Shown here: positions 6,653-61,100 of the stretch, one piece after another
Numbering within the stretch: position 1 is the first letter of the stretch
How the letters are laid out: the number at the start of each line of letters is the position of its first letter
NCBI GenBank assembly: GCA_041577335.1
Contig: JBFGJH010000003.1
Span: 1-64,000, forward strand
Reading direction: 5' to 3'
From: Acidimicrobiia bacterium
GTDB lineage: Bacteria > Actinomycetota > Acidimicrobiia > Spongiisociales > JAENVV01
Length of the DNA: 64,000 nt
Translations under genes and position numbers: made by a program
Notes under the pieces: generated by a model
Told to the model about the DNA's origin: nothing
The model's input: only the letters and a program-made list of their open reading frames with translations
Databases searched by the model: none

Positions 6653-7141
6653 CTATTCGGCGAGGATCGTCAGTACCTGCTTGCGTGTCTCGTCGAGGAG
6701 CTGGCGAATCTTCTCCGCCTGTTCCTCGTTGGCGGTCCGACCCAGGCTGCGTAGTACTTCAAGAAGTGCCATCCCGGAGGACCGCACCGAGGTTCCGCCT
6801 TCGCTCATGTCGCCGAATCGACTCTCGAAACGCTCCTTGGCTTCTTCGGCCGCCTCGGTTCCCTCAGGGGTGAGGGTGTATACCGTCTTGCCGTCTTCGG
6901 GGGTGGACGTAACGAGGTCTCGGTCACCCAACATCGCCAAGGTGGGGTAGATGGATCCCGGGCCTGGCGACCACCGGCCGCCTGTTCTTGCCTCGATCCG
7001 TTTGCCCAACTCGTAGCCATGGCCGGGCCCGTCGAGGAGTTCGACGAGCAGCGCGGCTCGAACAAAGCCCCGCTGTGCTCTGGCGCCCCCGAAACCTCCG
7101 TGGCGCATTCGATGATGTTTTCCTGCGTGTGTTCTATGCAC
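6653..7141 (-). CDS. PadR family transcriptional regulator with His/Gly-rich N-terminus
   Basis: HGYEL...WSPGPGSIYPTL...YTLTPEG; GTG start with SD GAAAGGA. Confidence 0.88.
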   Translation of the reverse strand: MHRTHAGKHHRMRHGGFGGARAQRGFVRAALLVELLDGPGHGYELGKRIEARTGGRWSPGPGSIYPTLAMLGDRDLVTSTPEDGKTVYTLTPEGTEAAEEAKERFESRFGDMSEGGTSVRSSGMALLEVLRSLGRTANEEQAEKIRQLLDETRKQVLTILAE

Positions 7142-7169
7142 GTTCTTCCTTTCGAGAATGCCTGTGAAC

Positions 7170-7188
7170 GTTATAACACGATATATCG
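7170..7188 (-). promoter_or_regulatory. Palindrome CGATATATCG beside an extended -10 (TGTTATAAC): probable PadR autoregulatory operator
   Basis: Perfect 10-bp palindrome 7179-7188 in an AT-rich patch directly upstream of the PadR gene. Confidence 0.6.
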
Positions 7189-7279
7189 CTACATATTCCA
7201 ACATTCTTCTGGGGAAAGAAGATAGGAGGACAGGGGGACGAGTGGTCGGGTGCGTTGGCCGCCTTCTGATTGGGTTGCC

Positions 7280-8428
7280 CTAGCGGTGGGCGGCGAACTG
7301 GACCACGTTGATGCGTCCGATGCGAAAGCCCGCTTCGCAATATGCCAGATAGCTCTTCCACATGCGGCGGAAGCGCTCGTCGAAGTCCTGCTTTCGGATC
7401 TCTGGCCATGCTTCATCGAATCGTTGGTGCCAGATGGCGAGGGTGCGAGCGTAGTCCAGGCCAAAGGCCTCTTCTGAATCCCAGTTGAGGCCCGCCTCGG
7501 CGACCATGGTTCTCAGAAGTGCGGGGGATGGCAACATGCCTCCCGGGAAGATGTAGCGCTGGATGAAGTCCGGGTTGGCCCGGTAGGAATCCCAGAATTC
7601 ATCCTTGATGATGATCGCCTGCATGGCCATCACGCCACCTGGTGCCAGAGAGCGGGCGATCATGTGGAAGAGCTCCTGCCACCTGGTTTCGTCGATCGAC
7701 TCGATCATTTCCACCGACACGACCCGGTCGAACGTGCCTTCGTGGTGGGCGAAGTCGAGAAGGTGTGCGTCGATCGTTCCGGAAACGGTCTCGTCGGCCA
7801 TCCGCGACTTCACATATGCCAGCTGCTCTTCCGCGATGGTGAGCGTGGTTACGTGGCATCCCATGCGAGCGAGGTGCAACGCAAATCCTCCCCACCCGGT
7901 CCCAATCTCCAAGATTCGCTGACCGGGGCGTATGTCGGCGATCGACACGAGTGATTGATATTTCGCATACTGGGCATCCTCGAGATCGGAGGCGAGGTCG
8001 AATCGAGCGGAAGAGTATGTCATCGAAGGGTCGAGCCACTTGGCATAGAAGTCGTTCCCGAGGTTGTAGTGGCTCGCCATCGTGTCCACGTTGGTGTGAC
8101 GGGTGTCGCGACGCCGGCTGGCGGCCCGGCCCCATTGATACAAGCGGGGTCGATCCTTCACCCAGGCTTGCTGGTTGGAAGCGGCAAACAAGAGGAATGT
8201 GGCCAGGTCATCGGTGTCGTACTCACGCTCCATATACGATTCGAGAAGACTGAGCGCACCACCCGCCAGCGCTCCGGCGATCACCCCGGGTACGTACAGC
8301 GTCACCGAAGCCTCCGGTCCCGGCTGCGACCCTTGCAGGACGGCCGTGGAACCGTCTGGGAAGGTCACGTCCAACCGGCCCAGCGAGATAGCTCTGCTCA
8401 GGATGGAGAGAGCGACTCGGTCCTTCAT
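7280..8428 (-). CDS. Cyclopropane-fatty-acyl-phospholipid synthase family methyltransferase (UfaM/UfaA1-like)
   Basis: HYNLGNDFY...DPSMTYSSA, LEIGTGWG SAM motif, FIQRYIFPGGMLPS, YLAYCEAGF. Confidence 0.92.
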   Translation of the reverse strand: MKDRVALSILSRAISLGRLDVTFPDGSTAVLQGSQPGPEASVTLYVPGVIAGALAGGALSLLESYMEREYDTDDLATFLLFAASNQQAWVKDRPRLYQWGRAASRRRDTRHTNVDTMASHYNLGNDFYAKWLDPSMTYSSARFDLASDLEDAQYAKYQSLVSIADIRPGQRILEIGTGWGGFALHLARMGCHVTTLTIAEEQLAYVKSRMADETVSGTIDAHLLDFAHHEGTFDRVVSVEMIESIDETRWQELFHMIARSLAPGGVMAMQAIIIKDEFWDSYRANPDFIQRYIFPGGMLPSPALLRTMVAEAGLNWDSEEAFGLDYARTLAIWHQRFDEAWPEIRKQDFDERFRRMWKSYLAYCEAGFRIGRINVVQFAAHR

Positions 8429-9183
8429 GCCACCTTTTCCATAGGCATTGACACTAGATCGGCCGGAGGGGCTCCACGAGACCGATAGGGAGCCCTCTTG
8501 AGGATGAGGCGGATCGCCTCATAGTGAATCCCGACGATGACTTTCACCGTCATGAGCGGCCGGCGGCCGAACAAGCGGAGCAGGTTGGAACTGGTCATGT
8601 CGAGGCGTTTGCCTTCGAGGGCGGCAGTGAGAAGGTGGCCATCCTTGTCGGCTACCCGGCTGGCTACCGTGACGCGCTCGGCCGGCGCCTGGAGACGGAA
8701 ACGGTAGGTGGCGTCGAGGTCGATGAAAGGCGAGACGAACAGTCGCTTGTTCCAGGGATGGTCGATCTTCCCGTCGATCACCGGCAACAGGTAGCTGTGG
8801 TACTCACCGAAGGTATTGGTGGTTTCGTAGAGCACTGCAGCCAGCTCGCCGTTGTCATCGTGGCAGTACCACACGGACAGCGGGTTGAATACGTAGCCGA
8901 GGATGCGGGGAAAGGTGAGGAGCTGGACCCTACCTCCAGCAATGTCGACTCCGTGCTCGGCGCATACTTTCTCGATCCACGGTCGCAAAGCGTTGCCGTC
9001 ACGTGGCCCGTAGTCGCTGTCTCTGAAAGAGAATAGGTTGAAGCGGTTGTGCGAATAGAAGCGGGGAAGGCTGTCGAGCTGATCGATGTCGAGCAACGAC
9101 CAGAACACCTTGTAGGTGAACCGATGGCGACGCGGCCGCACGCGATGATGCATGACGGAACCGTCGTAGAGGGCATGGTTCAT
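8425..9183 (-). CDS. DUF1365 protein (UfaO-like)
   Basis: HHRVRPRRHRFTY, PRILGYVFNPLSVWYC, NTFGEYHSY, KRLFVSPF; overlaps both neighbours. Confidence 0.9.
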   Translation of the reverse strand: MNHALYDGSVMHHRVRPRRHRFTYKVFWSLLDIDQLDSLPRFYSHNRFNLFSFRDSDYGPRDGNALRPWIEKVCAEHGVDIAGGRVQLLTFPRILGYVFNPLSVWYCHDDNGELAAVLYETTNTFGEYHSYLLPVIDGKIDHPWNKRLFVSPFIDLDATYRFRLQAPAERVTVASRVADKDGHLLTAALEGKRLDMTSSNLLRLFGRRPLMTVKVIVGIHYEAIRLILKRAPYRSRGAPPADLVSMPMEKVA

Positions 9184-10418
9184 CCAGGAACTCTATCGAA
9201 TTGGTGCAGGACCGATTCCGCCGCTGCGTAGCCTGCCATGATCCCGTCCTCATGGAATCCGTATCGGAAATATGCCCCGGCATACCACACGCGGTCGTCG
9301 CCCTGAAGGGAAGCCAGCTCGGGCTGGGCGTCGATGGCGGCAGTGTCGAACATCGGGTGGTCGTAGATCCAAGATCCCCAGATTCGGCGCGGCTCGCGAA
9401 CCGGGTTGAGCGTGAGAAACAGCTGCTCGGGTGTGTCCAGGTTCTGGAGGCGGTTCATCCAGTAGGTGACAGACGGGAGCGATGATCGGTCGGTGGCCGT
9501 GACGTTCCAACTGGCCCACGCTCGGCGCTTGCTGGGCATGAAGCTGGGGTCGGAGTGCAGCACGGCGTGGTTCTTCGAGTAGGCGAAGTTCGACAGCAGA
9601 TCCCGCTCGCGCGGAGTTGCCGAACCATTGAGGATCTTGAGTGACACGTCAGCGTGCGTAGCCAGCAGCACGCCGTCAAAACGCTCGATGGAATCCGGAA
9701 ACACCACGTCCACGCCGGTGGCAGTACGCCGAATCTCCTGGACGGGGGTGTTGGTGTGGATTCGATCTGCAAACGGTGCGACCAGCTTTTCGACGTAATT
9801 CCGGGCGCCTCCTGTCACCGTTCTCCATTGGGGACGGTCCTTCAGCTGGATGAGGCCATGATTGTTGAAGAACCGGATGAGGGTTTGAGCCGGGTAGTTC
9901 TCCATGTCGGCTTCGGGCGTCGACCAGATGGCCGCACACATGGGCAGAAGGTAGCGGTCGCGGAAAGCGGGGCTCAGATCTCGGGTGAAGTCCCCGAGCG
10001 TGGTCGAGCTGGGGAGATTGTCTCCCGCGGCCTCACGTACCCGGCGGTTGAAGGTGATGATGTCTTTGATCATCAGCCAGTGCTGGGGGTCGAGCGCCGC
10101 CTTTCGGTCGGCGAACATGCCCCGTACCGAGCCTTCGTACTCCCGAGGCTCCCCGGCGACAGCAAATGACATGTCTGACGGCTCGGTCGCCACACCCAGG
10201 TCGTGGAAGAGCTCGGTGAGAAGTGGGTACGTCGCATTGTTGTAGACGATGAAACCGGTATCGACGGCGGTGGAGCCGGACTCCAACGGGACATCGACGG
10301 TGTGGGTATGGCCGCCGATCCACTCGGCGGCTTCGAAGACTTCCAGGTCGACGTGCTGATGAAGTTTGTGAGCAGCGCCGAGACCAGCGATCCCGGAGCC
10401 AACGATCGCGAAACGCAT
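9180..10418 (-). CDS. FAD-dependent oxidoreductase/desaturase (UfaD-like)
   Basis: GSGIAG Rossmann, GGHTHT, VDTGFIVYN, RRAWASWN, GAYFRYGFHEDG; SD AGGAGG. Confidence 0.9.
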   Translation of the reverse strand: MRFAIVGSGIAGLGAAHKLHQHVDLEVFEAAEWIGGHTHTVDVPLESGSTAVDTGFIVYNNATYPLLTELFHDLGVATEPSDMSFAVAGEPREYEGSVRGMFADRKAALDPQHWLMIKDIITFNRRVREAAGDNLPSSTTLGDFTRDLSPAFRDRYLLPMCAAIWSTPEADMENYPAQTLIRFFNNHGLIQLKDRPQWRTVTGGARNYVEKLVAPFADRIHTNTPVQEIRRTATGVDVVFPDSIERFDGVLLATHADVSLKILNGSATPRERDLLSNFAYSKNHAVLHSDPSFMPSKRRAWASWNVTATDRSSLPSVTYWMNRLQNLDTPEQLFLTLNPVREPRRIWGSWIYDHPMFDTAAIDAQPELASLQGDDRVWYAGAYFRYGFHEDGIMAGYAAAESVLHQFDRVPG

Positions 10419-10441
10419 GATGTTTGTCCTCCTACCGGTTC

Positions 10442-10468
10442 TACGGAACTGCGGGAGGATCAGGATGA
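10442..10468 (-). promoter_or_regulatory. Candidate ECF (SigK/RpoE-like) promoter TCATCC-N16-CCGTA
   Basis: Minus strand catcatcctgatcctcccgcagttccgtagaaccggtaggagg, directly upstream of the SD of the UfaD-like gene. Confidence 0.5.
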
Positions 10469-10534: not shown

Positions 10535-11542
10535 TCAGAAACGGATCAGAGCAGATCCCCATGTGAAGCCGCTCCCAAAGGCGGAAGCGGCGATGAGCAT
10601 GCCGGGTTGGAGCCGGCCCGATCGAACTGCCGAGTCGATGCAGATCGGGATCGTTGCGGCCGTGGTATTGGCGGTGCGCTGGATCGTATTGATGACCTTG
10701 TCCGGAGAAATCCCCATACGCTTGGCGACGGCCTCGTTGATGCGGAGGTTGGCCTGGTGGAAGAAGAACAGGTCCACATCTTCCAGGTTCATACCATTGG
10801 CCTTGAGAGCCTCGTCGATCGATTCGGGCATCCGCTTGACGGCATTCAGAAACACCCGTTTGCCGTCCATGAACGGGAAGTGCCGGCCGGCTTCGATGTC
10901 CTCGATTCGAATCCGATGTCCGGGAGAGGCCTGCGACGGATATTCCGCCCAGAGGACTTTGGCAGCGCTGCCATCGGCGTGGATGTGGGTTGAGAAGACC
11001 TGCGGGTCGGCGTGTGTCGGGCTGGACGTGGCTTCGAGAACCACCGCCCCTGCTCCGTCACCGAAGAGGACAGCAATGTCTTTGCCCCGCGGTGACAAGT
11101 CGATCCCTTTGGAGTGGATCTCGGCGCCGACCACGAGGATGCGCTCTGCTTGTCCGAGCCGGATGTAAGCGTCTGCCTGGTGGAGGGCGTAGATGAAGCC
11201 AGAGCACTGCTGGCGTACATCGATCGCCGGGATGCCGGGCACGTCGAGCTTTGCTTGAAGAAAGCAAGCCGTGCCCGGGAAGTCGTGATCGGGAGAGATG
11301 GTTGCAAACACGATCATGTCCAGGGCGGTCGCGTCAATGCCGGCCGCAGTCAGTGCTCTCGTGGAAGCCTCGTATCCGAGGTCCGACGTCGTGGTAGTGC
11401 CTTCCACCCAGTGGCGCTGTTCGATTCCGGAACGCTCAACGATCCAGTCGGGCGCGACGTCGACGAGAGGGGCGATTTCGGCGTTCGTGACCACTCGGGG
11501 CGGCAGAAACGAGCCGGTACCGGTGATGCGTGAACGCGGCAT
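10535..11542 (-). CDS. fabH: 3-oxoacyl-ACP synthase III
   Basis: Cys-His-Asn triad: QQCSGF, FHQAN, ANTTAATIP; LFGDGAGA, FGSGFTWG. Confidence 0.9.
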   Translation of the reverse strand: MPRSRITGTGSFLPPRVVTNAEIAPLVDVAPDWIVERSGIEQRHWVEGTTTTSDLGYEASTRALTAAGIDATALDMIVFATISPDHDFPGTACFLQAKLDVPGIPAIDVRQQCSGFIYALHQADAYIRLGQAERILVVGAEIHSKGIDLSPRGKDIAVLFGDGAGAVVLEATSSPTHADPQVFSTHIHADGSAAKVLWAEYPSQASPGHRIRIEDIEAGRHFPFMDGKRVFLNAVKRMPESIDEALKANGMNLEDVDLFFFHQANLRINEAVAKRMGISPDKVINTIQRTANTTAATIPICIDSAVRSGRLQPGMLIAASAFGSGFTWGSALIRF

Positions 11543-11610
11543 ATGAGAAAGATATCGCTGTTGGCGGCGTTGTGAGAATCCGGTCTCTTCCAGTGGGGAG
11601 GCCAACGCCC

Positions 11611-12195
11611 CTACGTGGGATCCTTGAAGGGAGCTCGGTCGGGGCCAAATCTCATCAAAGGCATGGCGAGGATGGCTCCGGCGAGGTTGGCGACGAGATC
11701 CGCCATGTTGTTGCCGTAGTCGCCCACGTTGGCGTTTTCGACCACCAGCGTTCCCACGAATTCGACGATTTCTACGAGCGCGCCGAGCCCGCACGCCACG
11801 AGCACCGCCAGGATCCGAGCTGTGGTGAGATTCGTGGCGCGGTCGAGGCGTGGCGCCACCACGTCGAACACCGCCAATGCGGCCAGGCCGGTAGCAACGA
11901 GATGGGCGGGCTTGTCGAAGCGGAAATCCCCCCACAGCGCCAGCACATAGAGCGGCTGACCCTCGACGAGCAGGACTCCTCCTACCAAGTTGATGATGGC
12001 TGCGGCCACGAGTGCCCATGCCGCTCGCCTCGACAGGGGCGTGAAGGCGTGGATGACGCCGACCAGGGCCGCCAGGACGATGGTGATGGTCACATATATC
12101 CAGGTGAACGGGCTGTCGGCAGTTACCCCGTAGACCGCGGTGAGCAGTGTTGCCGCTGTCAGAACGGCGACCGGTCTCCCGACGCCGACCATCAC
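11611..12195 (-). CDS. Integral membrane protein, DUF2238/YjdF-like
   Basis: Several TM segments; FDKPAH, LVEIVEF, NNMADLVANLAGA pattern. Confidence 0.65.
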   Translation of the reverse strand: MMVGVGRPVAVLTAATLLTAVYGVTADSPFTWIYVTITIVLAALVGVIHAFTPLSRRAAWALVAAAIINLVGGVLLVEGQPLYVLALWGDFRFDKPAHLVATGLAALAVFDVVAPRLDRATNLTTARILAVLVACGLGALVEIVEFVGTLVVENANVGDYGNNMADLVANLAGAILAMPLMRFGPDRAPFKDPT

Positions 12196-18411: not shown

Positions 18412-20310
18412 ATGGTGACGATTTCGCTCACACCGAATGCCCTGGCAGTGCTGGAGCGCAGGTATCTGCTCCGCAATGAAGATGGCTCGCCCACAGAAAC
18501 GCCGGGCGACATGTTCCGTCGGGTGGCCCACAACATTGCGTCGGCCGAATTGGTGTGGGGCGGCCGCCCCGGCGAGTGGGAAGAGCGGTTTTTCGAGATG
18601 ATGGCCGGCCTCGACTTCCTGCCCAATTCGCCGACCATGATGAACGCGGGCCGCGAACTCCAGCAACTGGCTGCCTGTTTTGTGTTGCCGGTCGACGATT
18701 CCCTCGATTCCATATTCGATACGTTGAAGCACACCGCCAAGATCCATCAGTCAGGAGGCGGCACAGGTTTCTCGTTCTCCCGGCTACGGCCACGCGGTGA
18801 CATGGTCAAATCAACCCGGGGGATCTCATCGGGTCCTGTGTCGTTTCTGGAGGTGTACGACTCGGCCACCGAGCACATCAAACAGGGCTCGTTCCGACGC
18901 GGCGCCAACATGGGGATTCTCGACGTGACGCACCCCGACATTCTCGAATTCATCGACGCGAAGCGGGAAGGCGGGATCTCGAACTTCAACCTGTCTGTTG
19001 CCGTCACTGCCGAGTGGATGGCGAAGGCAGAGCGCCACGAGGACTACGAGCTCATCAACCCGCGGGACGGAAAGCCGGAAGGCAGGCTCAACGCCGGCGA
19101 AGTGTTCGACAAGATCGTCGGCTCCGCTTGGGAGACAGGCGATCCCGGAATCGTCTTCATCGACCGTATGAACCGGCCGCGGACCAATCCCACGCCTGGC
19201 TTGGGCCGGATCGAAGCCACGAACCCGTGCGGTGAACAGCCGCTTTTGCCATATGAGGCGTGTGTGCTCGGGTCCATCAATTTGGGTCGATTCGTGACGG
19301 GCGACGCCGGCCCCTCCATCGATTGGGATCGGCTCGGGCAGACCGTCACCGACGCGATCCGCTTCCTCGACAACGCCGTGGAACAGAGCCGCTATCCGCT
19401 CGAGCAGATCGCCCAGCTCCATCGCGAGGGCAATCGCAAGGTTGGCTTGGGTGTGATGGGCTGGGCCGACATGTTGGTCAGGCTCGGCATTGGCTACGAC
19501 TCACAAGCGGCGGTCGACCTGGCAGGCGAAATCATGGGCTTCATCTCGGATTCGGCCGACGAAAGCTCGGCGCGATTGGCCGGCGAGCGAGGGCCATTCA
19601 ACAATTGGCCTGACTCGGTGTTCGGCCCCGACGGCGATGATCGACTGCTTCGCAACGCCACCCGCACCACGATCGCACCCACGGGAACGATCTCGATCAT
19701 CGCTGGTTGCTCGTCTGGGATCGAACCCTTGTTTGCAGTCAGCTATTACCGCAAGGTGATGGAAGGCAGCGTTCTGCTCGAGGTCAATCCCGACTTCGAG
19801 CGGCGAGCCCGACAGCTGGGCGTGTGGTCGGACGAGTTGGCGGAGTCGGTCACCACCAAGGGCAGCGTCCGGGGGCTGGCTGTCCCTGAGGAGCTCGAGC
19901 GGCTGTTCGCAACGGCGCACGACGTTTCGCCTGCCTGGCATGTCCGCCATCAAGCCGCATTCCAGGCCCACGTTGACAATGCGGTATCCAAGACCATCAA
20001 TCTGCCGGGCAATGCCACTCGGGCCGACATCGCCCGGATCTACCTGATGGCGCGCGATCTCGGCTGCACGGGCATCACGGTGTATCGGGACGGGTCCAAG
20101 CAATGGCAGGTGCTCAATCGGGGTACCCCGACAGGAACCGACCTCGGCACCATGGAAGGGTCTCCGCCTGCGTTCGGCGAAGACGATCACGTCATGCCGC
20201 CACTGCGCGGTCAGAGCGTGTTCGAGATCTGTCCGATGTGTGGTGCCGCCGCATTCGAATTCGCGGAGGCATGCGGCAAGTGCCACTCGTGCGGCCACTC
20301 CACCTGCTGA
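18412..20310 (+). CDS. nrdJ: Class II adenosylcobalamin-dependent ribonucleotide reductase
   Basis: PNSPTMMNAG, AACFV, GGGTG, RRGANM, TNPCGEQ, TIAPTGTIS, C-terminal CPMC...CHSCGHSTC; no ATP cone. Confidence 0.93.
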   Translation: MVTISLTPNALAVLERRYLLRNEDGSPTETPGDMFRRVAHNIASAELVWGGRPGEWEERFFEMMAGLDFLPNSPTMMNAGRELQQLAACFVLPVDDSLDSIFDTLKHTAKIHQSGGGTGFSFSRLRPRGDMVKSTRGISSGPVSFLEVYDSATEHIKQGSFRRGANMGILDVTHPDILEFIDAKREGGISNFNLSVAVTAEWMAKAERHEDYELINPRDGKPEGRLNAGEVFDKIVGSAWETGDPGIVFIDRMNRPRTNPTPGLGRIEATNPCGEQPLLPYEACVLGSINLGRFVTGDAGPSIDWDRLGQTVTDAIRFLDNAVEQSRYPLEQIAQLHREGNRKVGLGVMGWADMLVRLGIGYDSQAAVDLAGEIMGFISDSADESSARLAGERGPFNNWPDSVFGPDGDDRLLRNATRTTIAPTGTISIIAGCSSGIEPLFAVSYYRKVMEGSVLLEVNPDFERRARQLGVWSDELAESVTTKGSVRGLAVPEELERLFATAHDVSPAWHVRHQAAFQAHVDNAVSKTINLPGNATRADIARIYLMARDLGCTGITVYRDGSKQWQVLNRGTPTGTDLGTMEGSPPAFGEDDHVMPPLRGQSVFEICPMCGAAAFEFAEACGKCHSCGHSTC

Positions 20311-53293: not shown

Positions 53294-53935
53294 CTAGCCG
53301 AAGCGGTAGCCGACCGATCGGATCGTGGTGATCCACCCGGCACGCTCTTCGCCGACCTTGGCGCGGAGTCGCCGGACGTGGACGTCGACGGTGCGAGCCC
53401 CCCCGAAGTACTCGTACCCCCAGACCTTGGACAGCAGTTGTTCGCGGCTCCACACGCGACCCTGGTTCGCCATGAAGAAGCGAAGCAGCTCGTACTCCAT
53501 ATACGTCAGGTCGATAGGCACGCCGTCGATTGTGGCCTGGTACGTCGCAGTGTTGAGATCGAGATCGCGGAACGTCATGAGGTCACTTTCCGATTGCGTG
53601 GACACGAGGCGCCGTATCCGCATCCTGAGCTCGTTGGGCTCGAACGGTGCCACCGTGAAATCGGACAGCGACGGCTCGCCTTCCAGCGCTGCCAAGTGGT
53701 CGGTCATCGCGGCTACGAGGATGGGAACCCCCGAATCCTCGTACACCCGCCGCACGAGGCGCAAACGCCGCAGTGGCTGATCTCCGAGTTCGACGATCAG
53801 CAGGCTCCATCCTGAAGCAGCCTCGGGTTTGTCGAGATCCTGGTCGCCCACGAATTCGAACGCCTGCCCGCTCAATGCCAGTGATTCTTGAAGCCCGACG
53901 GAACAATCGCCGGGGTATACGGCCACGGTGCTCAT
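53294..53935 (-). CDS. glnR: GlnR-like OmpR family nitrogen regulator
   Basis: IDLTYMEYELL, VWGYEYFGGARTVDVHVRRLRAK, TIRSVGYRF; degenerate receiver; coupled to glnA. Confidence 0.82.
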   Translation of the reverse strand: MSTVAVYPGDCSVGLQESLALSGQAFEFVGDQDLDKPEAASGWSLLIVELGDQPLRRLRLVRRVYEDSGVPILVAAMTDHLAALEGEPSLSDFTVAPFEPNELRMRIRRLVSTQSESDLMTFRDLDLNTATYQATIDGVPIDLTYMEYELLRFFMANQGRVWSREQLLSKVWGYEYFGGARTVDVHVRRLRAKVGEERAGWITTIRSVGYRFG

Positions 53936-55269
53936 CACAAGATCGGCAAGTAGGTTTCGAGCTCGAACGGGGTGACGTGGTGCTGGTAGCGATTCCACTC
54001 GGCCCGCTTGTTGCGAATGAACCAGTCGAATACGTGCTCCCCAAGCGCCGTGTGAACCAACTCCGAGCGTTCCATTTCGTCGAGGGCATGGGACAAAGTC
54101 TCGGGAAGCCGCCGGATCCCTAGCGACGACCGTTGATCGTTGGTCATGTCGAAGACGTTGGTGCCCACCTCTTCGGGCAGCTCGAGCCCCTGACGGATGC
54201 CATCGAGTCCGGCGGCCAGCAGGACGGAGAAGGCGAGGTACGGGTTGCACGCCGCGTCAGGCGACCGATACTCAACGCGAGTCGAGCTGCGCTTGCCTGC
54301 CTTGGTCGTCGGCACCCGCACCAGCGCCGACTGGTTGTTGCGCGCCCAGAAACCATAGATAGGCGCTTCGAAGCCGGAGACCAGTCGTTTGTAGGAGTTG
54401 ACCCATTGATTGGTGACGGCCGTGAGTCCCGGGGCGTGCTCGAGCAGGCCGGCAATGAACGCCTCCGCCACCTTCGACAGGCCGGTTGGCGTTTCGCCAT
54501 GGAAGGCATTCGTATCGCCCTCGAAGAGAGAAAGGTGCATATGAAAGCCCGAGCCGTCGTGGTGCTCCATGGGCTTGGGCATGAAGGTGGCGTAGATGCC
54601 ATGCGTCAGAGCTACTTCCTTCACAACGAGTCGGAATGTCATCACGTTGTCGGCCATGGCCAACGCGTCGTCGTATCGCAGGTTTATCTCGTGCTGGGAT
54701 GGAGCGACTTCGTGGTGAGATTGTTCGACGGGGATGCCCAATCGTTCGAGGTTCTCGATCGTCTGGCGGCGATACTCCTGGGCAGTGTCCAGAGGGGTGA
54801 GGTCGAAGTATCCACCGCGGTCGAGGACCTGCGGGACGGGCCCGGAGTCGGCGAAGTAGAAGTACTCGAGCTCCGGACCGACATAGAAGCTGTATCCCAT
54901 CTCCGCTGCTTCGCGTAGGTTGCGCCGGAGCACGAACCGAGGGTCGCCCGCAAAAGCCTGCCCGTCCGGCGAGTGGATATCGCAGAACATCCGAGCGACG
55001 CCCTGCTCCTCCCGCCACGGAAGGATCTGAAATGTGGTCGGATCGGGTCGGGCAACCATGTCGGCCTCGTGCACCCTGGCGTACCCGTCGATCGACGAAC
55101 CGTCGAAAGTCATGCCTTCCTGGAAGGCTGTCTCGAGCTCGGCAGGGCTGATCGCCACCGACTTCAAGAACCCCTGAACGTCGGTGAACCAGAGCCGAAT
55201 GAAGCGAATGCCCCGTTTGGCGACCGTCTGGAGCACGTACTCGGACTGTTTTTCGTAGGCCGGTTCCAC
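53935..55269 (-). CDS. glnA: Type I glutamine synthetase family protein (actinobacterial GlnA2-like)
   Basis: IRFIRLWFTDV, FDGSSI, HHEVAPSQHEI, TFMPKP, SYKRL, RVEYRSPD; TACCGT 6 nt before GTG. Confidence 0.9.
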   Translation of the reverse strand: MEPAYEKQSEYVLQTVAKRGIRFIRLWFTDVQGFLKSVAISPAELETAFQEGMTFDGSSIDGYARVHEADMVARPDPTTFQILPWREEQGVARMFCDIHSPDGQAFAGDPRFVLRRNLREAAEMGYSFYVGPELEYFYFADSGPVPQVLDRGGYFDLTPLDTAQEYRRQTIENLERLGIPVEQSHHEVAPSQHEINLRYDDALAMADNVMTFRLVVKEVALTHGIYATFMPKPMEHHDGSGFHMHLSLFEGDTNAFHGETPTGLSKVAEAFIAGLLEHAPGLTAVTNQWVNSYKRLVSGFEAPIYGFWARNNQSALVRVPTTKAGKRSSTRVEYRSPDAACNPYLAFSVLLAAGLDGIRQGLELPEEVGTNVFDMTNDQRSSLGIRRLPETLSHALDEMERSELVHTALGEHVFDWFIRNKRAEWNRYQHHVTPFELETYLPIL

Positions 55270-55329
55270 GAGGTCACGGTAGCCGCCGACGAGGTGTGGC
55301 AAAAGGCCAGAGTGGCCTCGAATGGAGCT

Positions 55330-55440: not shown

Positions 55441-56442
55441 GTGAGCTATCGAGCGGAATACATTTGGATCGACGGTCAGCAGCCGACGGCCAAGCTTCGT
55501 TCCAAGACCAAGATCGTTCCGGACGGCGCTGAGCCTCCGATCTGGGGCTTTGATGGTTCCAGCACCCAGCAGGCGCCTGGGGAGGCGTCGGACTGTGTCC
55601 TTCGCCCGGTCTTCACGTGTCCCGATCCGGTGCGGGGCAACGATGACATACTCGTGATGTGTGAAGTGCTCACGGTCGACTTGGAGCCGCACCCGTCCAA
55701 TACCCGGGCCGCGTGCGTGGCAACCGCAGAGAAGTTTGCCGCCTTTGAACCGTGGTTTGGGATCGAACAGGAATACACGTTCTTCAAAGACGGGCGCCCC
55801 CACGGTTGGCCCATAGGTGGCCTGCCGGCCCCCCAAGGAGGGTATTACTGCGGCATCGGCGCAGACGAGATTTGGGGCCGGGATGTCGTAGAGAGGCACA
55901 CGAAGGCGTGCATGGATGCCGGCCTCCAGATCTCGGGCACCAACGCCGAAGTCATGATCGGTCAGTGGGAGTTTCAGATTGGCCCGCTCGGCCCTGTCGA
56001 AGCGGCCGACCAAGTATGGGTCGCGCGGTGGCTGCTCTATCGAGTGGCAGAGGACTTCGATATTTCGGCCACGCTCGACCCCAAGCCGGTCAAGGGCGAT
56101 TGGAACGGGGCTGGTGCCCACACCAACTTCTCCACCAAGCAGATGCGCGAGGCGTACGACCCCGTGTTGGCGGCTTGTGAAGCACTGGGCAAGGCCCACG
56201 ACGACCATATCGTTCACTATGGGGCGGACATCGAGCACCGGCTCACCGGCCTCCATGAGACGGCGCCATGGACCGACTTCAGCTACGGCGTCTCTGACAG
56301 AGGAGCTTCGGTGAGAATTCCCTGGCAAACCGAGGTGGACAAGAAGGGCTATATCGAAGATCGACGCCCCAACGCCAACATGGATCCGTACGTGGTGACT
56401 CGTCTGATCACGAACACCGTGTGCTCTACTGCCACCGCCTGA
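55441..56442 (+). CDS. glnII: Glutamine synthetase type II
   Basis: AEYIWIDG, LRSKTK, WGFDGSST, PQGGYYCG, NAEVMIGQWEFQIG, GDWNGAGAH, EDRRP; 333 aa; SD GAGGAG. Confidence 0.94.
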   Translation: MSYRAEYIWIDGQQPTAKLRSKTKIVPDGAEPPIWGFDGSSTQQAPGEASDCVLRPVFTCPDPVRGNDDILVMCEVLTVDLEPHPSNTRAACVATAEKFAAFEPWFGIEQEYTFFKDGRPHGWPIGGLPAPQGGYYCGIGADEIWGRDVVERHTKACMDAGLQISGTNAEVMIGQWEFQIGPLGPVEAADQVWVARWLLYRVAEDFDISATLDPKPVKGDWNGAGAHTNFSTKQMREAYDPVLAACEALGKAHDDHIVHYGADIEHRLTGLHETAPWTDFSYGVSDRGASVRIPWQTEVDKKGYIEDRRPNANMDPYVVTRLITNTVCSTATA

Positions 56443-56453
56443 TCCGAACCCGA

Positions 56454-56501
56454 GCATGAAGAGAGGAGGGGCCGTACGCGCGGCCCCTCCTCTCTTCATG
56501 C
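56454..56501. terminator. 21-bp perfect hairpin between convergent genes
   Basis: GCATGAAGAGAGGAGGGGCCG-tacgcg-CGGCCCCTCCTCTCTTCATGC. Confidence 0.82.
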
Positions 56502-57311
56502 GTGGTTGCTGAGCGCCGATCGAAAGAGGTCGACGACCCCATCGATTGACGTTGCGTAGCCGTCGGCGCCGAGTTGTGTCGCATGTTCGGCGCTTTCGAT
56601 GGCGCCACCGCCCAGGTAGACGGGAACGGTCGTCGCTCCCTTGATTGAGCGCACGGTGCGTTCGATGGTTTCTTCGTTCCGAGGCGCGAATGCAGAGATT
56701 CCGACCGCCACGAGATCGGAAGTCTGCTTCACCGCGTGAACGAACGATTCTGCGGGGGTGTTGGCGCCCAGATCGTCCACGTAGAAATGATCGAGGCGGA
56801 GGAGATCGGCGAGCATCGTCCCCCCCAGATGGTGAGCGTCCCCTTGCGGGCTCCCAAGGATGATCGAGCCGCGTCGGCGCCCGCGCGGCGTGAAGCGGGG
56901 GCTGATCCGCCCCACGAGCCTCGAGGCAATGAGGCTGGCCCGATGCTCGTCGGCAATGTCGATCCTCCCGCCTTCCCATTTCTCACCGATCGATCGAAGT
57001 GCCGGAAGGAGGCCGCGCTCGTAGATGTCGCGAGGCTGACTCCCGGAGGTCAGGGCTGCTTCGATGATCGACCAGGCGCCGGGCTCGTCGCCATCCAGAA
57101 GCCGGTCCTCGAGTCGGGCCGGCCAGTCCTGGGCCGCCGCCGCCGTCGGTGGCGACATGAGGCTCTCGACATCTGCCAGTTCGACGCGCCAGGTGTTTCC
57201 CTCTTTGTACGCAGGGAGCTTTCCGAGGCGGATGTAGCGGTACGCCGTCATGTAGTGGACGCCGAGGAGATCGGCTGCCGCTTGGAGTGAGATGGGTTGA
57301 GATTCATTCAT
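56496..57311 (-). CDS. Cobalamin-binding transcriptional regulator (Xis/MerR-like HTH plus CarH/LitR-type B12 domain)
   Basis: AAADLLGVHYMTAYRYIRLGKLPA HTH; W-x9-EH (WEGGRIDIADEH); DxHxxG (GDAHHLG); LGANTP; VGIS; LGG. Confidence 0.88.
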   Translation of the reverse strand: MNESQPISLQAAADLLGVHYMTAYRYIRLGKLPAYKEGNTWRVELADVESLMSPPTAAAAQDWPARLEDRLLDGDEPGAWSIIEAALTSGSQPRDIYERGLLPALRSIGEKWEGGRIDIADEHRASLIASRLVGRISPRFTPRGRRRGSIILGSPQGDAHHLGGTMLADLLRLDHFYVDDLGANTPAESFVHAVKQTSDLVAVGISAFAPRNEETIERTVRSIKGATTVPVYLGGGAIESAEHATQLGADGYATSIDGVVDLFRSALSNHA

Positions 57312-57331
57312 CGGTCGCCTCTTCACTTCCC

Positions 57332-57387
57332 GAGATTGACATCTCTGTAAGTTTAGTACTAAATTCATTTCAGTACTAAATGTACAG
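57332..57387. promoter_or_regulatory. AT-rich divergent promoter/operator: TTGACA-N18-TAAATT overlapped by duplicated TT(T/C)AGTACTAAA
   Basis: TTGACA 57336-41; palindrome TTTAGTACTAAA 57352-63; near-copy TTCAGTACTAAA 57369-80. Confidence 0.7.
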
Positions 57388-57402
57388 GAGGAAGTTAGCG
57401 CA

Positions 57403-58008
57403 ATGACTATGACAATGGTGGGCACTCCCGAACGGTCAGTCTCTCGTTGGAGTCACGCCTCGGACCAGGAGCTCGCAGATGCGATCATCGACCGTTCCGA
57501 AGCCGCCCTCGGCGAGGCGTACCGCCGGCACTCTGCTGCGGTCTATGGGCTGGCCAAACGAGTCATCCGAAATCAGTCCCTGGCCGAGGATGTCGTTCAA
57601 GAAGTCTTTCTACGCCTCTGGAACAGCCCCGAGAAGTTCGACGCAAGCCGGGGCTCAATCCGTTCCTTCTTACTGGCCCACACACATGGCCGTTCAGTGG
57701 ATATCATCCGCTCAGAGACCTCGCGCCGTAATAGAGAAGACAGAGAAGCAACACTGACGGCGCAGGCAGGACCGAGCATCGACGAAGAGGTTTGGCAAAT
57801 GGCGCTCGCGGACAAAGTCCAGCAGGCATTGCAGTCATTGCCCCAGACAGAACGGTCGGTAATCGAACTCGCCTACTTCGGTGGTCTCACCTACCGACAG
57901 GTGGCAGTCCACCTCGAGCTTCCCGAGGGAACGGTGAAGAGCCGGATCCGATCGGGTCTCAAGCGCCTTCAGGCGATAATGGCAGAGGCGGGCCTCACCA
58001 CCGCCTGA
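57403..58008 (+). CDS. sigK: ECF sigma factor, SigK-like
   Basis: AEDVVQEVF, FDASRGS, VDIIRS, IELAYFGGLTYRQVA, PEGTVKSRIRSGL; RskA-like gene downstream. Confidence 0.85.
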   Translation: MTMTMVGTPERSVSRWSHASDQELADAIIDRSEAALGEAYRRHSAAVYGLAKRVIRNQSLAEDVVQEVFLRLWNSPEKFDASRGSIRSFLLAHTHGRSVDIIRSETSRRNREDREATLTAQAGPSIDEEVWQMALADKVQQALQSLPQTERSVIELAYFGGLTYRQVAVHLELPEGTVKSRIRSGLKRLQAIMAEAGLTTA

Positions 58009-58016
58009 GGTGACGG

Positions 58017-58808
58017 ATGAAGCACAACGAAGCGGCCGAGCTCCTTGGCGCATACGCTCTCGACGCAGTCGAGGGAGATGAGAGCCCTGAACTCGAAACC
58101 CACGTCGCTGCCTGCAACGAATGCCAGGCAGAGCTCGACGGATACAGGACGGTCGCTGCCGTCCTCGCCGGCGCCGGTGAGCTAGCCCCTGGTACGGCAT
58201 GGGAGGGGATCATCGAGAAGCTCGATCCTGAGCTGCCAAGCCTGGTATCTGGTCCAAAGGAGGAGCATTCGAATGTCATTCCCTTGCGCTCGACGGTTCG
58301 CTGGTGGGTTTCTGCAACTGCTGTAGCAGCGGCTTTCGCCGTCGTGCTCGGAGCCGCGTACCTGTCCGAGCGGAGCACGGTCGAAGGGCTGCGGGGCGAA
58401 GTGACGGCTGCGCAATCTCGGGCTGCCGACGCCGAGTCGGCACTGGCGGGTATCCAAGCCGAAAATGCTCTCGCCCGCGCTGCCCGTGACGCCGCTGAGA
58501 GCGCCAATTCGCTGCAGGTCAGCCTCAGAGCCGACTCGACTGCCGCGGCCACGACCATCGTGCTCACCGAGGACGGCACCGGCTATATCGCAGACAGCAC
58601 CCTCCCGGCACTCCCCGAGGGCCGTACGTATCAACTGTGGGCGGTCGTGGACGGACGAGTCATCTCGGCCGGCGTGCTCGGCCCCGACCCGGAAATCGTG
58701 CCGTTTCGTGTCGATCCGGTCGGGCTGGAAGCCTTGGCGATCACCGAAGAGGTCGTCGGAGGTGTCGCCGTGTCAGAGAACCCGATCTTGGTTGCTTGGA
58801 GCAAATAG
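58017..58808 (+). CDS. rskA: RskA family anti-sigma factor with zinc-binding motif
   Basis: LLGAYALDA, HVAACNEC (HxxxCxxC), one TM, TYQLWA, LAITEE. Confidence 0.85.
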   Translation: MKHNEAAELLGAYALDAVEGDESPELETHVAACNECQAELDGYRTVAAVLAGAGELAPGTAWEGIIEKLDPELPSLVSGPKEEHSNVIPLRSTVRWWVSATAVAAAFAVVLGAAYLSERSTVEGLRGEVTAAQSRAADAESALAGIQAENALARAARDAAESANSLQVSLRADSTAAATTIVLTEDGTGYIADSTLPALPEGRTYQLWAVVDGRVISAGVLGPDPEIVPFRVDPVGLEALAITEEVVGGVAVSENPILVAWSK

Positions 58809-58818
58809 CCGTTCCTGG

Positions 58819-59382
58819 TCAATCGTCGACCGTGGGCTCCGTGTCACTTGATCGGGCAGCAGCAGCTATGGCAACACCACGACGCTCGAGGAACCGGGTG
58901 AGGGGAGCCGGCAGCTCGGCCGGCCGATCTCCCCAGTCGTACACAACAGCGCTCCCGCTGATCACGTCGTGGAGAGCGCGCCGCTCTCGGCCGAGAATGA
59001 TCCCGACGAACCCGATGCCCATCAGCAAGAAGTTCAGTGGGAAGGTAACGACACGAACGGCGGCGCGGCCTGGGCCGAGAGGCATGCCTTGCCTTGTCAC
59101 CACCTTCAATCCGACCAAGGCCTTGCCGACCGACCGCCCAGTGATCGTTAGCCCCACGAACAGGTAGAGAAAGGCCCAGGCGCCAAGTCCGAGCCAGTAC
59201 CAAGCCGGGTCGACGGCGCCGAAGTCGACTTCGATACCAAACAGCAGGTTCAGGAAGAACTGTCCTCCCGCGAGGATGAGCCCGTATATGCCGGTGAGGA
59301 TCAGCCAATCGATGCCAAACGCAACCAGCCGCGTGAACGCCCCCGCGTACTGGCCCGAGACCTGGCCGACTCCGGTGCTCAT
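58819..59382 (-). CDS. RDD family membrane protein
   Basis: YAGAFTRLVAFGID, GRSVGKALVGLKVV, RRALHD. Confidence 0.9.
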   Translation of the reverse strand: MSTGVGQVSGQYAGAFTRLVAFGIDWLILTGIYGLILAGGQFFLNLLFGIEVDFGAVDPAWYWLGLGAWAFLYLFVGLTITGRSVGKALVGLKVVTRQGMPLGPGRAAVRVVTFPLNFLLMGIGFVGIILGRERRALHDVISGSAVVYDWGDRPAELPAPLTRFLERRGVAIAAAARSSDTEPTVDD

Positions 59383-60401
59383 TCGTTCTGCTCTGCGGGC
59401 TCAACCAAATGGACTGGTCCCTTTGGAAAATCGCCCGGCCCTCGACCGAGCAGCCGATTGACGATGCCGGCGAGAACGGTATCGAGTGCCGCCGCCTGCC
59501 GACGCCCCACATCGAGAGCCGATCCGGCCACATCGCTTGTTGCTTCAGCCACCAATTCGCCGACCTGAGCGCGTTTCGCCACGGCAGCGACATCGACGCG
59601 CTCGAGCACGGCGTCCATGTCGAGTCGGTCCAGCAGAGCATCCAGGTCCACCTTGGCCAGGAGGGAGTCCAGGTCCGCTCGGCCGACCAGTTGGTCGAGG
59701 TCAACTCGAGTCAGCAGGGTGTTGACGTCGACGCGGCCGAGCAAGCTGTTGATATCGACTCGTTCGATGAGGGCGGCGATGTCGACCCGATCGAGCAGGC
59801 GTTCGAGGTCCACGCCGGCGAGGATCGTGTTCAGGTCTGCGCCTTCGACCAGCGCGTTGATGTCGACCTCGGTGAGAAGCGAGTTGACGTCGACGCGGCC
59901 GAGCAAGCTGTTGATATCGACTCGCTCGAGTAGCGCGTCGACATCGACAGCATCGAGGAATGTATTGAGGTCGATCTGCTCGACGATCTCGGCAGGGTCG
60001 AGTGATTCCGCTACGACCGGAGCGACTCCAGACACAACGCGACTGAACTGGGCCTTGGCGACACGGCCCCCCTCTTCCCAATCGACGTCGTCGACGATGG
60101 CGTCTCTGGCGCCGCCGGCGACTTCGCTTGCTACCCGGGCAGCGGGCGTATTGGCTACGCGTTGCAAGAAAACTCGGCCGGCATCGGTGCCCCGCTGAAC
60201 CACGCGGATGCCGATCGACATCGCAAACCCGCCGGCCGTACGAGCTCGCGAAGGCTCACTGCCGGCAGGCATGGGCGGGTCTTCGTGACCTTCGCCCTGG
60301 GCGGAACGCTCGAGGCTGCGGACTTCGAAGTCCCCGCTTCCGAGTTCGATCACGTCGGACGCTTCTTCGTCTGGGCGGTCGTTGCCTGGGTCGTCGCTCA
60401 C
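59379..60401 (-). CDS. Nonapeptide-repeat protein, (V/I/L)D-x-(N/D)-x-L-L-x-R
   Basis: About 16 tandem 9-aa units such as VDINSLLGR VDVNSLLTE; GTG start with SD GAAGGAG; overlaps the RDD gene start. Confidence 0.8.
   Translation of the reverse strand: MSDDPGNDRPDEEASDVIELGSGDFEVRSLERSAQGEGHEDPPMPAGSEPSRARTAGGFAMSIGIRVVQRGTDAGRVFLQRVANTPAARVASEVAGGARDAIVDDVDWEEGGRVAKAQFSRVVSGVAPVVAESLDPAEIVEQIDLNTFLDAVDVDALLERVDINSLLGRVDVNSLLTEVDINALVEGADLNTILAGVDLERLLDRVDIAALIERVDINSLLGRVDVNTLLTRVDLDQLVGRADLDSLLAKVDLDALLDRLDMDAVLERVDVAAVAKRAQVGELVAEATSDVAGSALDVGRRQAAALDTVLAGIVNRLLGRGPGDFPKGPVHLVEPAEQNE
59570..60000. repeat. Coding 27-bp degenerate tandem repeat with an exact 42-bp duplication
   Basis: gttgacgtcgacgcggccgagcaagctgttgatatcgactcg at 59721-59762 and 59883-59924, 162 bp (6x27) apart. 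Confidence 0.85.
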
Positions 60402-60485
60402 ATGTTGCTCCTTCGACGGGAGGGTAACCGAATGGCTTTCGATCGAGTGGGCGTCGGGGAATGCGTTCGGTACAGTCGGGGCGCG

Positions 60486-61100
60486 ATGGATCAGGATCGA
60501 ACACTCGAAGTAGCCAGCGAGCAACTTGGCCGCATGCGGGGCATGACTGCCCTCTATCACAAGCGATTCTTTGCCGACGTGCGCTTTGCCCTCATCATGA
60601 TGATCGGACTCCTGGCCGGCGGTTTCTGGGGGGTGGCCGAGCTGTTTCTCATCGTGCCGTTCGTGGCGCTGTGGGGGGCGGTGCAGACGTCGTTCGATGC
60701 TTCGTACCTGATCCTGGCGCGGCAGTATGCCGTCGCCCTCGAGCGGTGGATCAACCGGCGTCTCGACCACGAGATCCTGCTCGGTGGGCGTCTCGAAGAT
60801 TCGTATTTGTTTCCCCTGGGTGTGGCGAAAGTCGTCACGATCCCACTCGCTGGTCCCATCACTTGGTTCGGGTTCGTTACGGCGTTCACCACCCTGGGCG
60901 GCTTGGGTGGAGCAGTTGTCGGGCTGTGGGCTGGTTGGCCGGTACTGGCCGATTTGTCACTGCTCGCCGCGGGAGCCTATTGGGTGAGCCTGGCCGGACT
61001 GGCCTTTGGCGCTCTTGCCGTGGGTTGGTGGTGGTTCGTAGCCGGCGCCGGAGAGCGGCGACTCGAAGCAGTCCTTGATCCGTTGAACCAGGCGGGCTGA
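60486..61100 (+). CDS. Hypothetical membrane protein
   Basis: About 4 TM segments, GC3-biased codons, TACAGT upstream. Confidence 0.7.
   Translation: MDQDRTLEVASEQLGRMRGMTALYHKRFFADVRFALIMMIGLLAGGFWGVAELFLIVPFVALWGAVQTSFDASYLILARQYAVALERWINRRLDHEILLGGRLEDSYLFPLGVAKVVTIPLAGPITWFGFVTAFTTLGGLGGAVVGLWAGWPVLADLSLLAAGAYWVSLAGLAFGALAVGWWWFVAGAGERRLEAVLDPLNQAG

Follow-up and report, generated by a model that had tools for sequence, protein, structure and literature searches.

A regulator with a cobalamin-binding domain next to sigK and rskA

The 64,000 nucleotides analyzed here, called the window in the following, are positions 1 to 64,000 of contig JBFGJH010000003.1 from an Acidimicrobiia bacterium (assembly GCA_041577335.1; 3.38 Mb on 128 contigs, 90.75% complete). 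Our subject is a locus in which the gene of a putative cobalamin-binding regulator, termed R, is divergent from a sigma factor gene, sigK, and the anti-sigma factor gene rskA. R (56496..57311, minus strand, 271 amino acids) combines, according to Pfam and a motif alignment, an HTH_17 DNA-binding domain with a cobalamin-binding domain of the CarH type, made up of a four-helix bundle and a Rossmann fold. A spacer of 91 bp (57312-57402) is shared with sigK (57403..58008, plus strand), which encodes a SigK-like extracytoplasmic function (ECF) sigma factor of 201 amino acids. The gene of the RskA-type membrane anti-sigma factor (58017..58808, plus strand, 263 amino acids) starts 9 nt past the sigK stop codon; both proteins were assigned using Pfam and NCBIfam. 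A preliminary description of this DNA had outlined the same genes and spacer, and its coordinates and features were right on every point that we checked.

All Pfam domains of R scored above their cut-offs, namely HTH_17 at residues 8-52 (44.2 bits), B12-binding_2 (PF02607) at residues 66-133 (55.2 bits) and B12-binding (PF02310) at residues 149-255 (51.0 bits). No MerR model of Pfam matched R at E<=0.01. A precomputed match to the MerR family PF00376 exists for 2 of the 120 best members of the R family, and hence the two helix-turn-helix types are close. The CarH equivalog model of NCBIfam covers residues 60-255 only and reaches 58.8 bits, far under its cut-off of 400. The family is large (2469 of 8000 scored candidates at E<=0.001), its three-domain make-up is common to nearly all of the 120 best members, and one source already lists some members as 'MerR family, light-induced transcriptional regulator'. 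In the literature that we searched, we found no description of an HTH_17-B12 regulator of this type. HTH_17 is named among several domains that occur in fusion with B12-binding plus photoglobin (PMC8717448), and a preprint on heliorhodopsin genomics contains no occurrence of cobalamin, MerR or excisionase (10.1101/2021.02.01.429150).

Light-responsive cobalamin domains can be told apart from enzyme-type domains by the four motifs GxxW, EH, GxxH and GxxxP, a signature that a 2024 study confirmed on several proteins including CtMerR (PDB 8JBS) (PMC11796333, excerpt). R contains all four, in the form of GEKW, EH, GDAH and GANTP. We aligned 38 members of the family with 45-89% identity to R and found the cap motif W112-x9-E122-H123, the pairs G109xxW112 and G182xxxP186, and H160 of the lower-ligand motif G157-D-A-H160-H-L-G163 (DxHxxG) to be invariant. 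Thus, G109, W112, E122, H123, H160, G182 and P186 are each conserved in 38/38 sequences. The claim of the preliminary description that both CarH signatures are carried on an excisionase-like helix-turn-helix domain is therefore borne out by the Pfam assignment and by this alignment. When the family profile was compared with solved structures, the best four matches were the photocobilins 8j2x, 8j2w and 8j2y and CtMerR 8jbs (E 1e-29 to 5e-26). They outranked methionine synthases, and CarH 5c8d was matched at E 8e-19. The proteins of the four best structures bind adenosylcobalamin (AdoCbl) and respond to light (PMC11796333, excerpt). All of these alignments cover the B12 module only, those of R to the solved chains of CarH and CtMerR at query residues of about 56-259. 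While domain make-up and motifs are read directly from the protein, B12 binding and a light response are predicted from them, and we conclude that the B12 domain of R is most likely of the light-sensing (photoreceptor) type.

Contig C13 of the assembly carries a gene for a CobA-type adenosyltransferase, and the genome encodes B12-using proteins, including mutase-type proteins among other B12-binding proteins and nrdJ, which was expected in the window and was indeed found there at 18442-20115. Judged by these genes, the cell is able to make the adenosyl form of the chromophore and uses AdoCbl enzymes, nrdJ among them. We count this supply and use of AdoCbl in favor of an AdoCbl-dependent R.

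Operator-like boxes in the spacer and their conservation in relatives

The spacer between R and sigK contains a sigma-70-type promoter directed to sigK (57336..57365, plus strand, TTGACA-18 nt-TAAATT, 10/12 matches). The -10 hexamer of this promoter is overlapped by an exact palindrome, TTTAGTACTAAA (57352..57363), which we call R-box 1. A second copy with one mismatch, R-box 2 (TTCAGTACTAAA, 57369..57380), lies over the expected transcription start, at a distance of 17 bp from centre to centre. With at most one mismatch allowed, TTTAGTACTAAA occurs only at these two places of the window, where 0.01 occurrences are expected (100 shuffles, 0 of which reached 2). The exact 12-mer has only 2 copies in the 3.38-Mb genome, one in the R/sigK spacer and the other on contig C1 outside the window (C1:53764-53775, locus L081:6765-6776), 19 nt upstream of a whiB-family gene (L081:6453-6746, minus strand) that is followed by a gene for an NAD-dependent epimerase-type protein (L081:5471-6409, minus strand). 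In the loci L025 and L066 of relatives, whiB lies within the cluster divergent from R, and in L066 it directly adjoins R. The whiB gene is thus likely a second direct target of R. Since the boxes in the spacer cover the -10 region and the start of the sigK promoter, they occupy a classical repressor position. Their placement is plain from the DNA; repression is the predicted consequence, and R most likely represses sigK-rskA via these putative operators.

Repression is not the only mode of action that a LitR-like protein suggests. In Streptomyces, LitR carrying hydroxy-B12 activates the litS promoter after illumination (PMC11519972, excerpt), and R could by analogy act mainly as a light-dependent activator of sigK, as was proposed for photoconverted LitR at the litS promoter. 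The architecture of the spacer makes this very unlikely. The boxes lie on the -10 hexamer and the transcription start of a promoter whose -35 element is a perfect TTGACA, a placement typical of repression, and the same layout of box and promoter is conserved in sigK orthologues.

This conservation was analyzed in two sets of relatives. The R-centred set was drawn from species-representative genomes, in which 579 relatives were found, and the best 80 loci were kept (615 kb, mostly metagenome-assembled genomes labelled Acidimicrobiia). Genes were called by codon-position G+C, their products were clustered and the clusters were named with Pfam; this codon-bias gene picker misses or mis-starts some genes. 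The box TTAG[T/C][A/G]CTAA (at most one mismatch) is present in 65 copies in these loci, nearly all of them intergenic. They stand upstream of R, sigK, amine oxidase/SDR, fasciclin, heliorhodopsin, photolyase, whiB and DUF4397 genes, and R itself has a box in 32 of 81 upstream regions, the window included. In 7 of the 80 loci sigK-rskA is directly divergent from R and in two more it is 3-4 kb away, while the other contexts of R comprise amine oxidase/CMAS/SDR clusters, photolyase, heliorhodopsin, fasciclin, DUF2867/NmrA, imuB-like and whiB genes. Such a gene set behind the R-boxes would be expected of the regulon of a light-responsive repressor.

These target genes also bear on the question of what R senses. 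B12-binding domains serve as plain cofactor sensors as well, and with nrdJ and the mutase-type proteins the cell has B12 enzymes in use, so that R might be a nutrient sensor which shuts off its targets under ample cobalamin, irrespective of illumination. However, photolyase, heliorhodopsin and amine oxidase/CMAS genes are typical light-response genes, and neither B12-dependent/-independent isozymes nor B12 transporters were found behind the R-boxes of the relatives. Together with the four invariant light-signature motifs and with photoreceptors as the nearest solved relatives, this renders a sensor of B12 availability quite improbable.

The second set was a sample of 150 genomes from the order to which the window belongs. 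SigK orthologues were accepted at E<=1e-30. A SigK orthologue was found in 87 genomes and R in 61, each tally including one genome flagged unpublished (G016), which entered as a count only. Distances between R and sigK were cross-tabulated by hand. On the same contig and within 6.3 kb of R, sigK was recovered in 40 of the 61 R-bearing genomes. The two genes are divergent and adjacent in 16 of them, R lies just upstream on the same strand in 7, and both are tail to tail in another 7; in the rest, 1-3.3 kb (7 genomes) or 4.4-6.3 kb (3 genomes) separate R and sigK. Among the other 21 R-bearing genomes, 12 have no SigK match and 9 carry R and sigK on separate contigs. In the synteny comparison, which the preliminary description had proposed as a check, the linkage of R and sigK is conserved in relatives.

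Of the sigK loci in other genomes we further inspected the 29 best, and in 28 of them enough upstream DNA was available for an evaluation. A box within 200 nt was present in 17 of these 28, typically in the layout TTGAC(A)-N11-13-TTTAGTGCTAAAA. R is encoded in 16 of the 17 genomes with a boxed sigK, but in none of the 11 with a box-less sigK. This co-occurrence is clean across at least four families, the genomes being related and not independent, and the split between boxed and box-less sigK is seen even inside one genus (g12). Moreover, sigK retains its upstream box even in L025 and L066, in which R lies at a distance of 2-4 kb or on the opposite side. It is conceivable that the neighborhood of R and sigK is incidental, such that R controls no more than its own gene (and whiB) and has no influence on sigK expression, and in 71 of the 80 R-centred loci in other lineages R is indeed not next to sigK. 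Yet, the boxes overlap the sigK promoter itself and not merely the spacer, they persist at a distance from R, and they follow the presence of R in the genome (16/17 versus 0/11). We therefore regard an incidental adjacency as extremely improbable.

The box-less sigK loci, all from genomes without R (L084-L086, L089, L092, L093, L099-L101, L109, L110), have a TGGACA-N17-TAAAAA-like promoter, and the place of the R-box is taken by TTGTTGTTAAAA, which resembles a decayed box. In these 11 loci a conserved CATCCA-N16-CGTAGA stands beside sigK and points at a divergent DUF4397 gene.

Several other features surround the locus. R is adjoined by genes for a type I glutamine synthetase (53935-55302, minus strand) and a type II-like enzyme (55441-56442, plus strand), and the order R-GlnII-GlnA is retained in L021, L027, L041, L053 and L072. 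Between R and the convergent glnII-like gene, at about 56459-56496, lies a perfect G+C-rich inverted repeat of 16 bp that overlaps the R stop codon and, as read from the sequence, resembles a two-way terminator. A conserved membrane protein without a Pfam family ('c12', 60486..61100, plus strand) is encoded 1.7 kb past the end of rskA, from which it is separated by two genes on the opposite strand, and its membership of the regulon is uncertain here. In relatives, c12 is in one operon with sigK-rskA (L021, L027, L041, L053), with whiB (L025, L066) or with R (L026), and it is divergent from R in L013; only unnamed actinobacterial clusters matched it in a protein atlas. The c12 gene is overlapped by the 5' part of an open reading frame on the opposite strand (59379-60770, minus strand, 463 amino acids from a tentative start), which has a long run of repeats of about ten residues, (V/L)D(I/L/V)xxLLxR, and no Pfam match.

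SigK, RskA and the genes behind ECF-type promoters

The sigK product has clear Sigma70_r2 and r4_2 domains in Pfam and contains no cysteine; its best NCBIfam model is SigK PRK09646 (155.4 bits, cut-off 226). RskA has the RskA_C domain (PF10099, 55 bits), matches the model NF052375 'anti-sigma factor' (104.9 bits, cut-off 100) and has one membrane span predicted from its sequence. Its N-terminus shows a zinc-type pattern of H3 and H29-x3-C33-x2-C36, with zf-HC2 at 22.0 bits just under the cut-off of 22.2, and the ChrR model TIGR02451 gives 16.9 bits (cut-off 124.5). The HxxxCxxC motif of the anti-sigma factor and the cysteine-free sigma factor, both described before, are hence found in the proteins. 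Both traits extend to the relatives. SigK is cysteine-free in 27 of 27 evaluable orthologues, the window's own included, and HxxxCxxC was found in 25 of 25 other anti-sigma reading frames examined, whether or not the genome encodes R. The two traits occur together in each of the 25 other orthologous pairs examined, also in those from genomes lacking R. A cysteine-free SigK paired with an HxxxCxxC RskA is thus characteristic of the lineage and occurs clade-wide. For comparison, the SigK Cys pair (133/183 in M. tuberculosis) is present in 94% of ECF18 and 56% of ECF19 sigma factors (PMC7509140, excerpt).

The preliminary description had seen in the zinc-type anti-sigma factor a second, redox-controlled gate. 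According to this idea the RskA N-terminus is a thiol or redox sensor, and SigK needs both light for its transcription and oxidation for its release. The residues H3, H29, C33 and C36 do fit the pattern of zinc anti-sigma factors, and their motif is shared by all 25 other orthologues. Most zinc anti-sigma domains of this class, however, bind zinc structurally and are not redox switches. In addition, genomes that lack R have the motif just as well, the zf-HC2 score stays just under the Pfam cut-off, and the RskA_C domain outside the membrane points to a signal from the envelope side. From known systems, the target operon described below resembles genes of the singlet-oxygen sigmaE-ChrR regulon (PMC3546557, excerpt), which speaks for a redox sensor, and mycobacterial RskA is cut by the intramembrane protease Rip1 (PMC7509140, excerpt), which speaks against it. 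A redox gate at RskA is therefore unlikely and is not supported by the comparison, in which genomes without R show the same SigK/RskA traits.

A candidate target operon is located on the minus strand of the window (7280..10418, from Pfam and open reading frames). It encodes a flavin amine oxidase (9180-10418), a DUF1365 protein (8425-9183) and a cyclopropane-fatty-acid-synthase-like (CMAS) methyltransferase (7280-8428). An ECF-type promoter, CATCCT-N16-CGTAGA (10440..10467, minus strand), stands 21 nt upstream of the amine-oxidase start codon and is predicted to be SigK-dependent. The operon is followed by a PadR-family regulator gene (6653-7204, minus strand) and preceded by a gene for a FabH-like 3-oxoacyl-ACP synthase III (10535-12019, minus strand), a neighbor that fits a fatty-acid-modifying role. 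For the pair of oxidase and methyltransferase, the BfaA/BfaB pathway of 10-methyl fatty acids, in which the oxidoreductase is given only as FAD-binding (PMC5660069), was considered as a tentative function.

Within the order, the pattern [A/C/T]ATCCN-N15/16-CG[A/T]ANN was found upstream of the amine-oxidase orthologues in 26 of 30 loci, the remaining four being near misses, and an R-box in none of the 30. In the R-centred loci of other lineages, on the contrary, 14 of 15 amine-oxidase genes have an R-box and only one has the ECF pattern. Consequently, the operon appears to be either under R directly or behind an ECF-type promoter and so under R via SigK. In four loci (L133, L134, L139, L140) sigK is divergent from the amine oxidase gene, and in L139 the motif also points at sigK. 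In the genome studied here, the ECF motif stands before the amine oxidase operon, before the sole fasciclin gene and before each of the two DUF4397 genes (4/4), as well as before a gene of the SRPBCC type (Polyketide_cyc2 family). We judged these sites by their intergenic, correctly oriented placement and by the orthologous positions, and their recognition by SigK is predicted.

One of the DUF4397 genes lies outside the window (contig C76, locus L144) and has the ECF-type promoter CATCCG-N15-CGTATC. Directly upstream of it stands TTTTTCCACTAAAT, which resembles half an R-box (weight-matrix score 12.0; region C76:2694-2739). This suggests a possible double control of the gene by R and SigK.

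Carotenoid genes were considered as a target and rejected, since phytoene synthase (PF00494) has no match anywhere in the genome at 90.75% completeness. That no carotenoid genes are nearby, as noted in the preliminary description, holds accordingly for the whole assembly in terms of PF00494.

A proposed light-controlled cascade and its known counterparts

Taken together, we favor, with moderate confidence, a model in which R is an AdoCbl-dependent, light-sensing repressor of sigK-rskA and SigK then drives a regulon behind CATCC-N15/16-CG(A/T)A promoters. R would represent the photochemistry module of CarH and LitR on a different DNA-binding domain (HTH_17). In the dark, B12-loaded R would bind as oligomers to the two palindromic boxes and block the housekeeping polymerase at sigK, thereby shutting off sigK-rskA and probably also its own gene; the same binding is predicted at the whiB operon elsewhere in the genome. 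Light would break the Co-C bond, R would leave the DNA and sigK-rskA would be transcribed. SigK, once freed from RskA, which is likewise a predicted step, would transcribe the amine oxidase-DUF1365-CMAS operon for lipid modification and the single fasciclin gene. The two DUF4397 surface-protein genes and the SRPBCC-type gene would be further targets. From the earlier proposal that light de-represses sigK, the link between R-box and sigK is supported by the comparison with relatives, and the added redox gate is not.

A number of observations weigh against this model. Behind W112, R carries Glu113 and not the His of Thermus CarH (H132), which lies beside the cap Trp and gives the bis-His light state (PMC11796333, excerpt). 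As CtMerR is light-responsive and also has no His next to the cap Trp (PMC11796333, excerpt), this residue is not required for a photoresponse. Only 9 of the 80 R-centred loci of other lineages have sigK within 4 kb, and the link to SigK is accordingly a feature of this order and not of the whole R family. Co-transcription of sigK and rskA means that de-repression alone yields sigma and anti-sigma factor together, so that free SigK would require either a further event at RskA or the escape of some sigma factor. The ECF pattern matches 303 times in the genome, mostly inside genes, and only 18 of these matches are intergenic and correctly oriented. A weight-matrix scan was noisy as well (77 matches above 16 bits, many of them intragenic) and scored the genome's own amine-oxidase site below 16. 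Since the motif discriminates weakly when taken alone, its assignment to SigK over another ECF sigma factor rests on gene context. Finally, the photolyase gene of this genome (contig C11) has neither an R-box nor an ECF motif by the patterns used. A heliorhodopsin gene at the end of the window's own contig, outside the window (C3:111951-112577), has only a look-alike with one mismatch, CGTCCA-N16-CGTAGT.

If the model is correct, a B12-type light-sensing repressor probably switches sigK-rskA, and subsequently a regulon for membrane lipids and surface proteins, on in the light. This would extend the LitR-LitS principle, in which a B12 photoreceptor acts on an ECF sigma factor and thereby on a light regulon, to another DNA-binding domain and to another family of sigma and anti-sigma factors, in a group of uncultured and environmentally common Actinomycetota. 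The analysis defines an operator and a promoter motif and predicts a small regulon. The amine oxidase operon, with direct repression by R in some lineages and control through SigK in others as its two predicted wirings, would be a clear case of regulatory rewiring.

The closest counterpart is found in Streptomyces, where LitR-AdoB12 represses the bidirectional litR/litS promoters and the ECF sigma factor LitS then drives light-induced genes (PMC11519972, excerpt). The preliminary description had regarded the wiring as one not described before. We cannot agree in this respect, because the design is that of LitR-LitS (PMC11519972, excerpt), and the DNA-binding domain, the sigma/anti-sigma family and the targets are what differs. 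In both cases a regulator of the AdoB12 photoreceptor type is divergent from an ECF sigma gene with one shared control region, here the 91-bp spacer with two boxes. For sigma-LitS, the promoter GCATCCR-N15-CVGAAD has been published (PMC11519972, excerpt), to which CATCC-N15/16-CG(A/T)A is strikingly similar. On the other hand, the DNA-binding domain of LitR is of the MerR type and that of R is HTH_17, the SigK-like sigma factor is co-transcribed with an RskA-type membrane anti-sigma factor, and the operator is palindromic. The predicted targets are the amine oxidase-DUF1365-CMAS, fasciclin and DUF4397 genes instead of carotenoid genes.

With CarH from Thermus thermophilus and Myxococcus xanthus (PDB 5C8D) and with CtMerR (PDB 8JBS), R shares the arrangement of B12-binding_2 and B12-binding, the Wx9EH motif, the lower-ligand His and the GxxW/EH/GxxH/GxxxP signature. 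CarH and CtMerR are repressors of light-response genes, as proposed for R. The DNA-binding domain of R belongs to another Pfam family, and the residue after the cap Trp is Glu in R, His in CarH and Arg in CtMerR. The operator of CarH consists of tandem direct repeats, whereas that of R is a palindrome of 12-14 bp, single or double.

A further comparison can be made with mycobacterial SigK-RskA. Mpt70 and Mpt83 are fasciclin-domain proteins, and Rv0449c is presumably a protein of the flavin amine-oxidase type. Mycobacterial SigK controls mpt83, dipZ, mpt70 and rv0449c (PMC5547695, excerpt), and sigK of M. tuberculosis is subject to autoregulation through the promoter of rv0449c (PMC7509140, PMC5547695, PMC4105308, PMC9861118, excerpts). 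The signal that starts this cascade is stated to be unknown (PMC7509140, PMC9861118, excerpts), and the mpt70/mpt83 homologues of M. kansasii are light-induced (PMC9861118, excerpt). In common with this system, the ECF sigma gene studied here is co-transcribed with that of an RskA_C-type membrane anti-sigma factor, and the regulon predicted from the promoter motif has fasciclin as well as flavin oxidase/methyltransferase genes. The differences are that SigK here lacks the Cys133/Cys183 pair and RskA here has HxxxCxxC, and that sigK is predicted to be expressed from a housekeeping-type promoter under a B12 regulator and not to be autoregulated. A link between a photoreceptor and SigK was not described in the literature that we searched. 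Comparative genomics offers, at the level of a hypothesis, an independent reason to regard the SigK regulon as responding to light or photo-oxidative conditions and a hint at the SigK signal. We can only tentatively suggest, and would sooner doubt than assume, that the SigK-RskA regulon, with its Mpt70/Mpt83-type fasciclin surface proteins and its flavin oxidase-DUF1365-methyltransferase lipid genes, is such a response at its root, hard-wired in this order to a B12 photoreceptor. In that case, light itself, or a lipid or oxygen product derived from it, would be the mycobacterial signal, and LitS, with its similar promoter consensus, might belong to the same sigma lineage.

Rhodobacter sphaeroides sigmaE-ChrR likewise combines an ECF sigma factor and a zinc-type anti-sigma factor, divergent from a lipid-modifying operon, in a setting of photo-oxidative stress, and the target set described here recalls the core singlet-oxygen regulon of Rhodobacter (PMC3546557, excerpt). 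ChrR, however, is soluble with a C-terminal cupin domain, while the anti-sigma factor studied here is membrane-bound with RskA_C. The Rhodobacter response starts from singlet oxygen at the anti-sigma factor and not from a photoreceptor that acts on transcription (PMC3546557, excerpt). In Vibrio cholerae, the blue-light response is also split between a MerR-like regulator and an ECF/anti-sigma pair (ChrR), but there the MerR-like regulator and ChrR reportedly act in parallel and not as a cascade (PMC5241685, excerpt).

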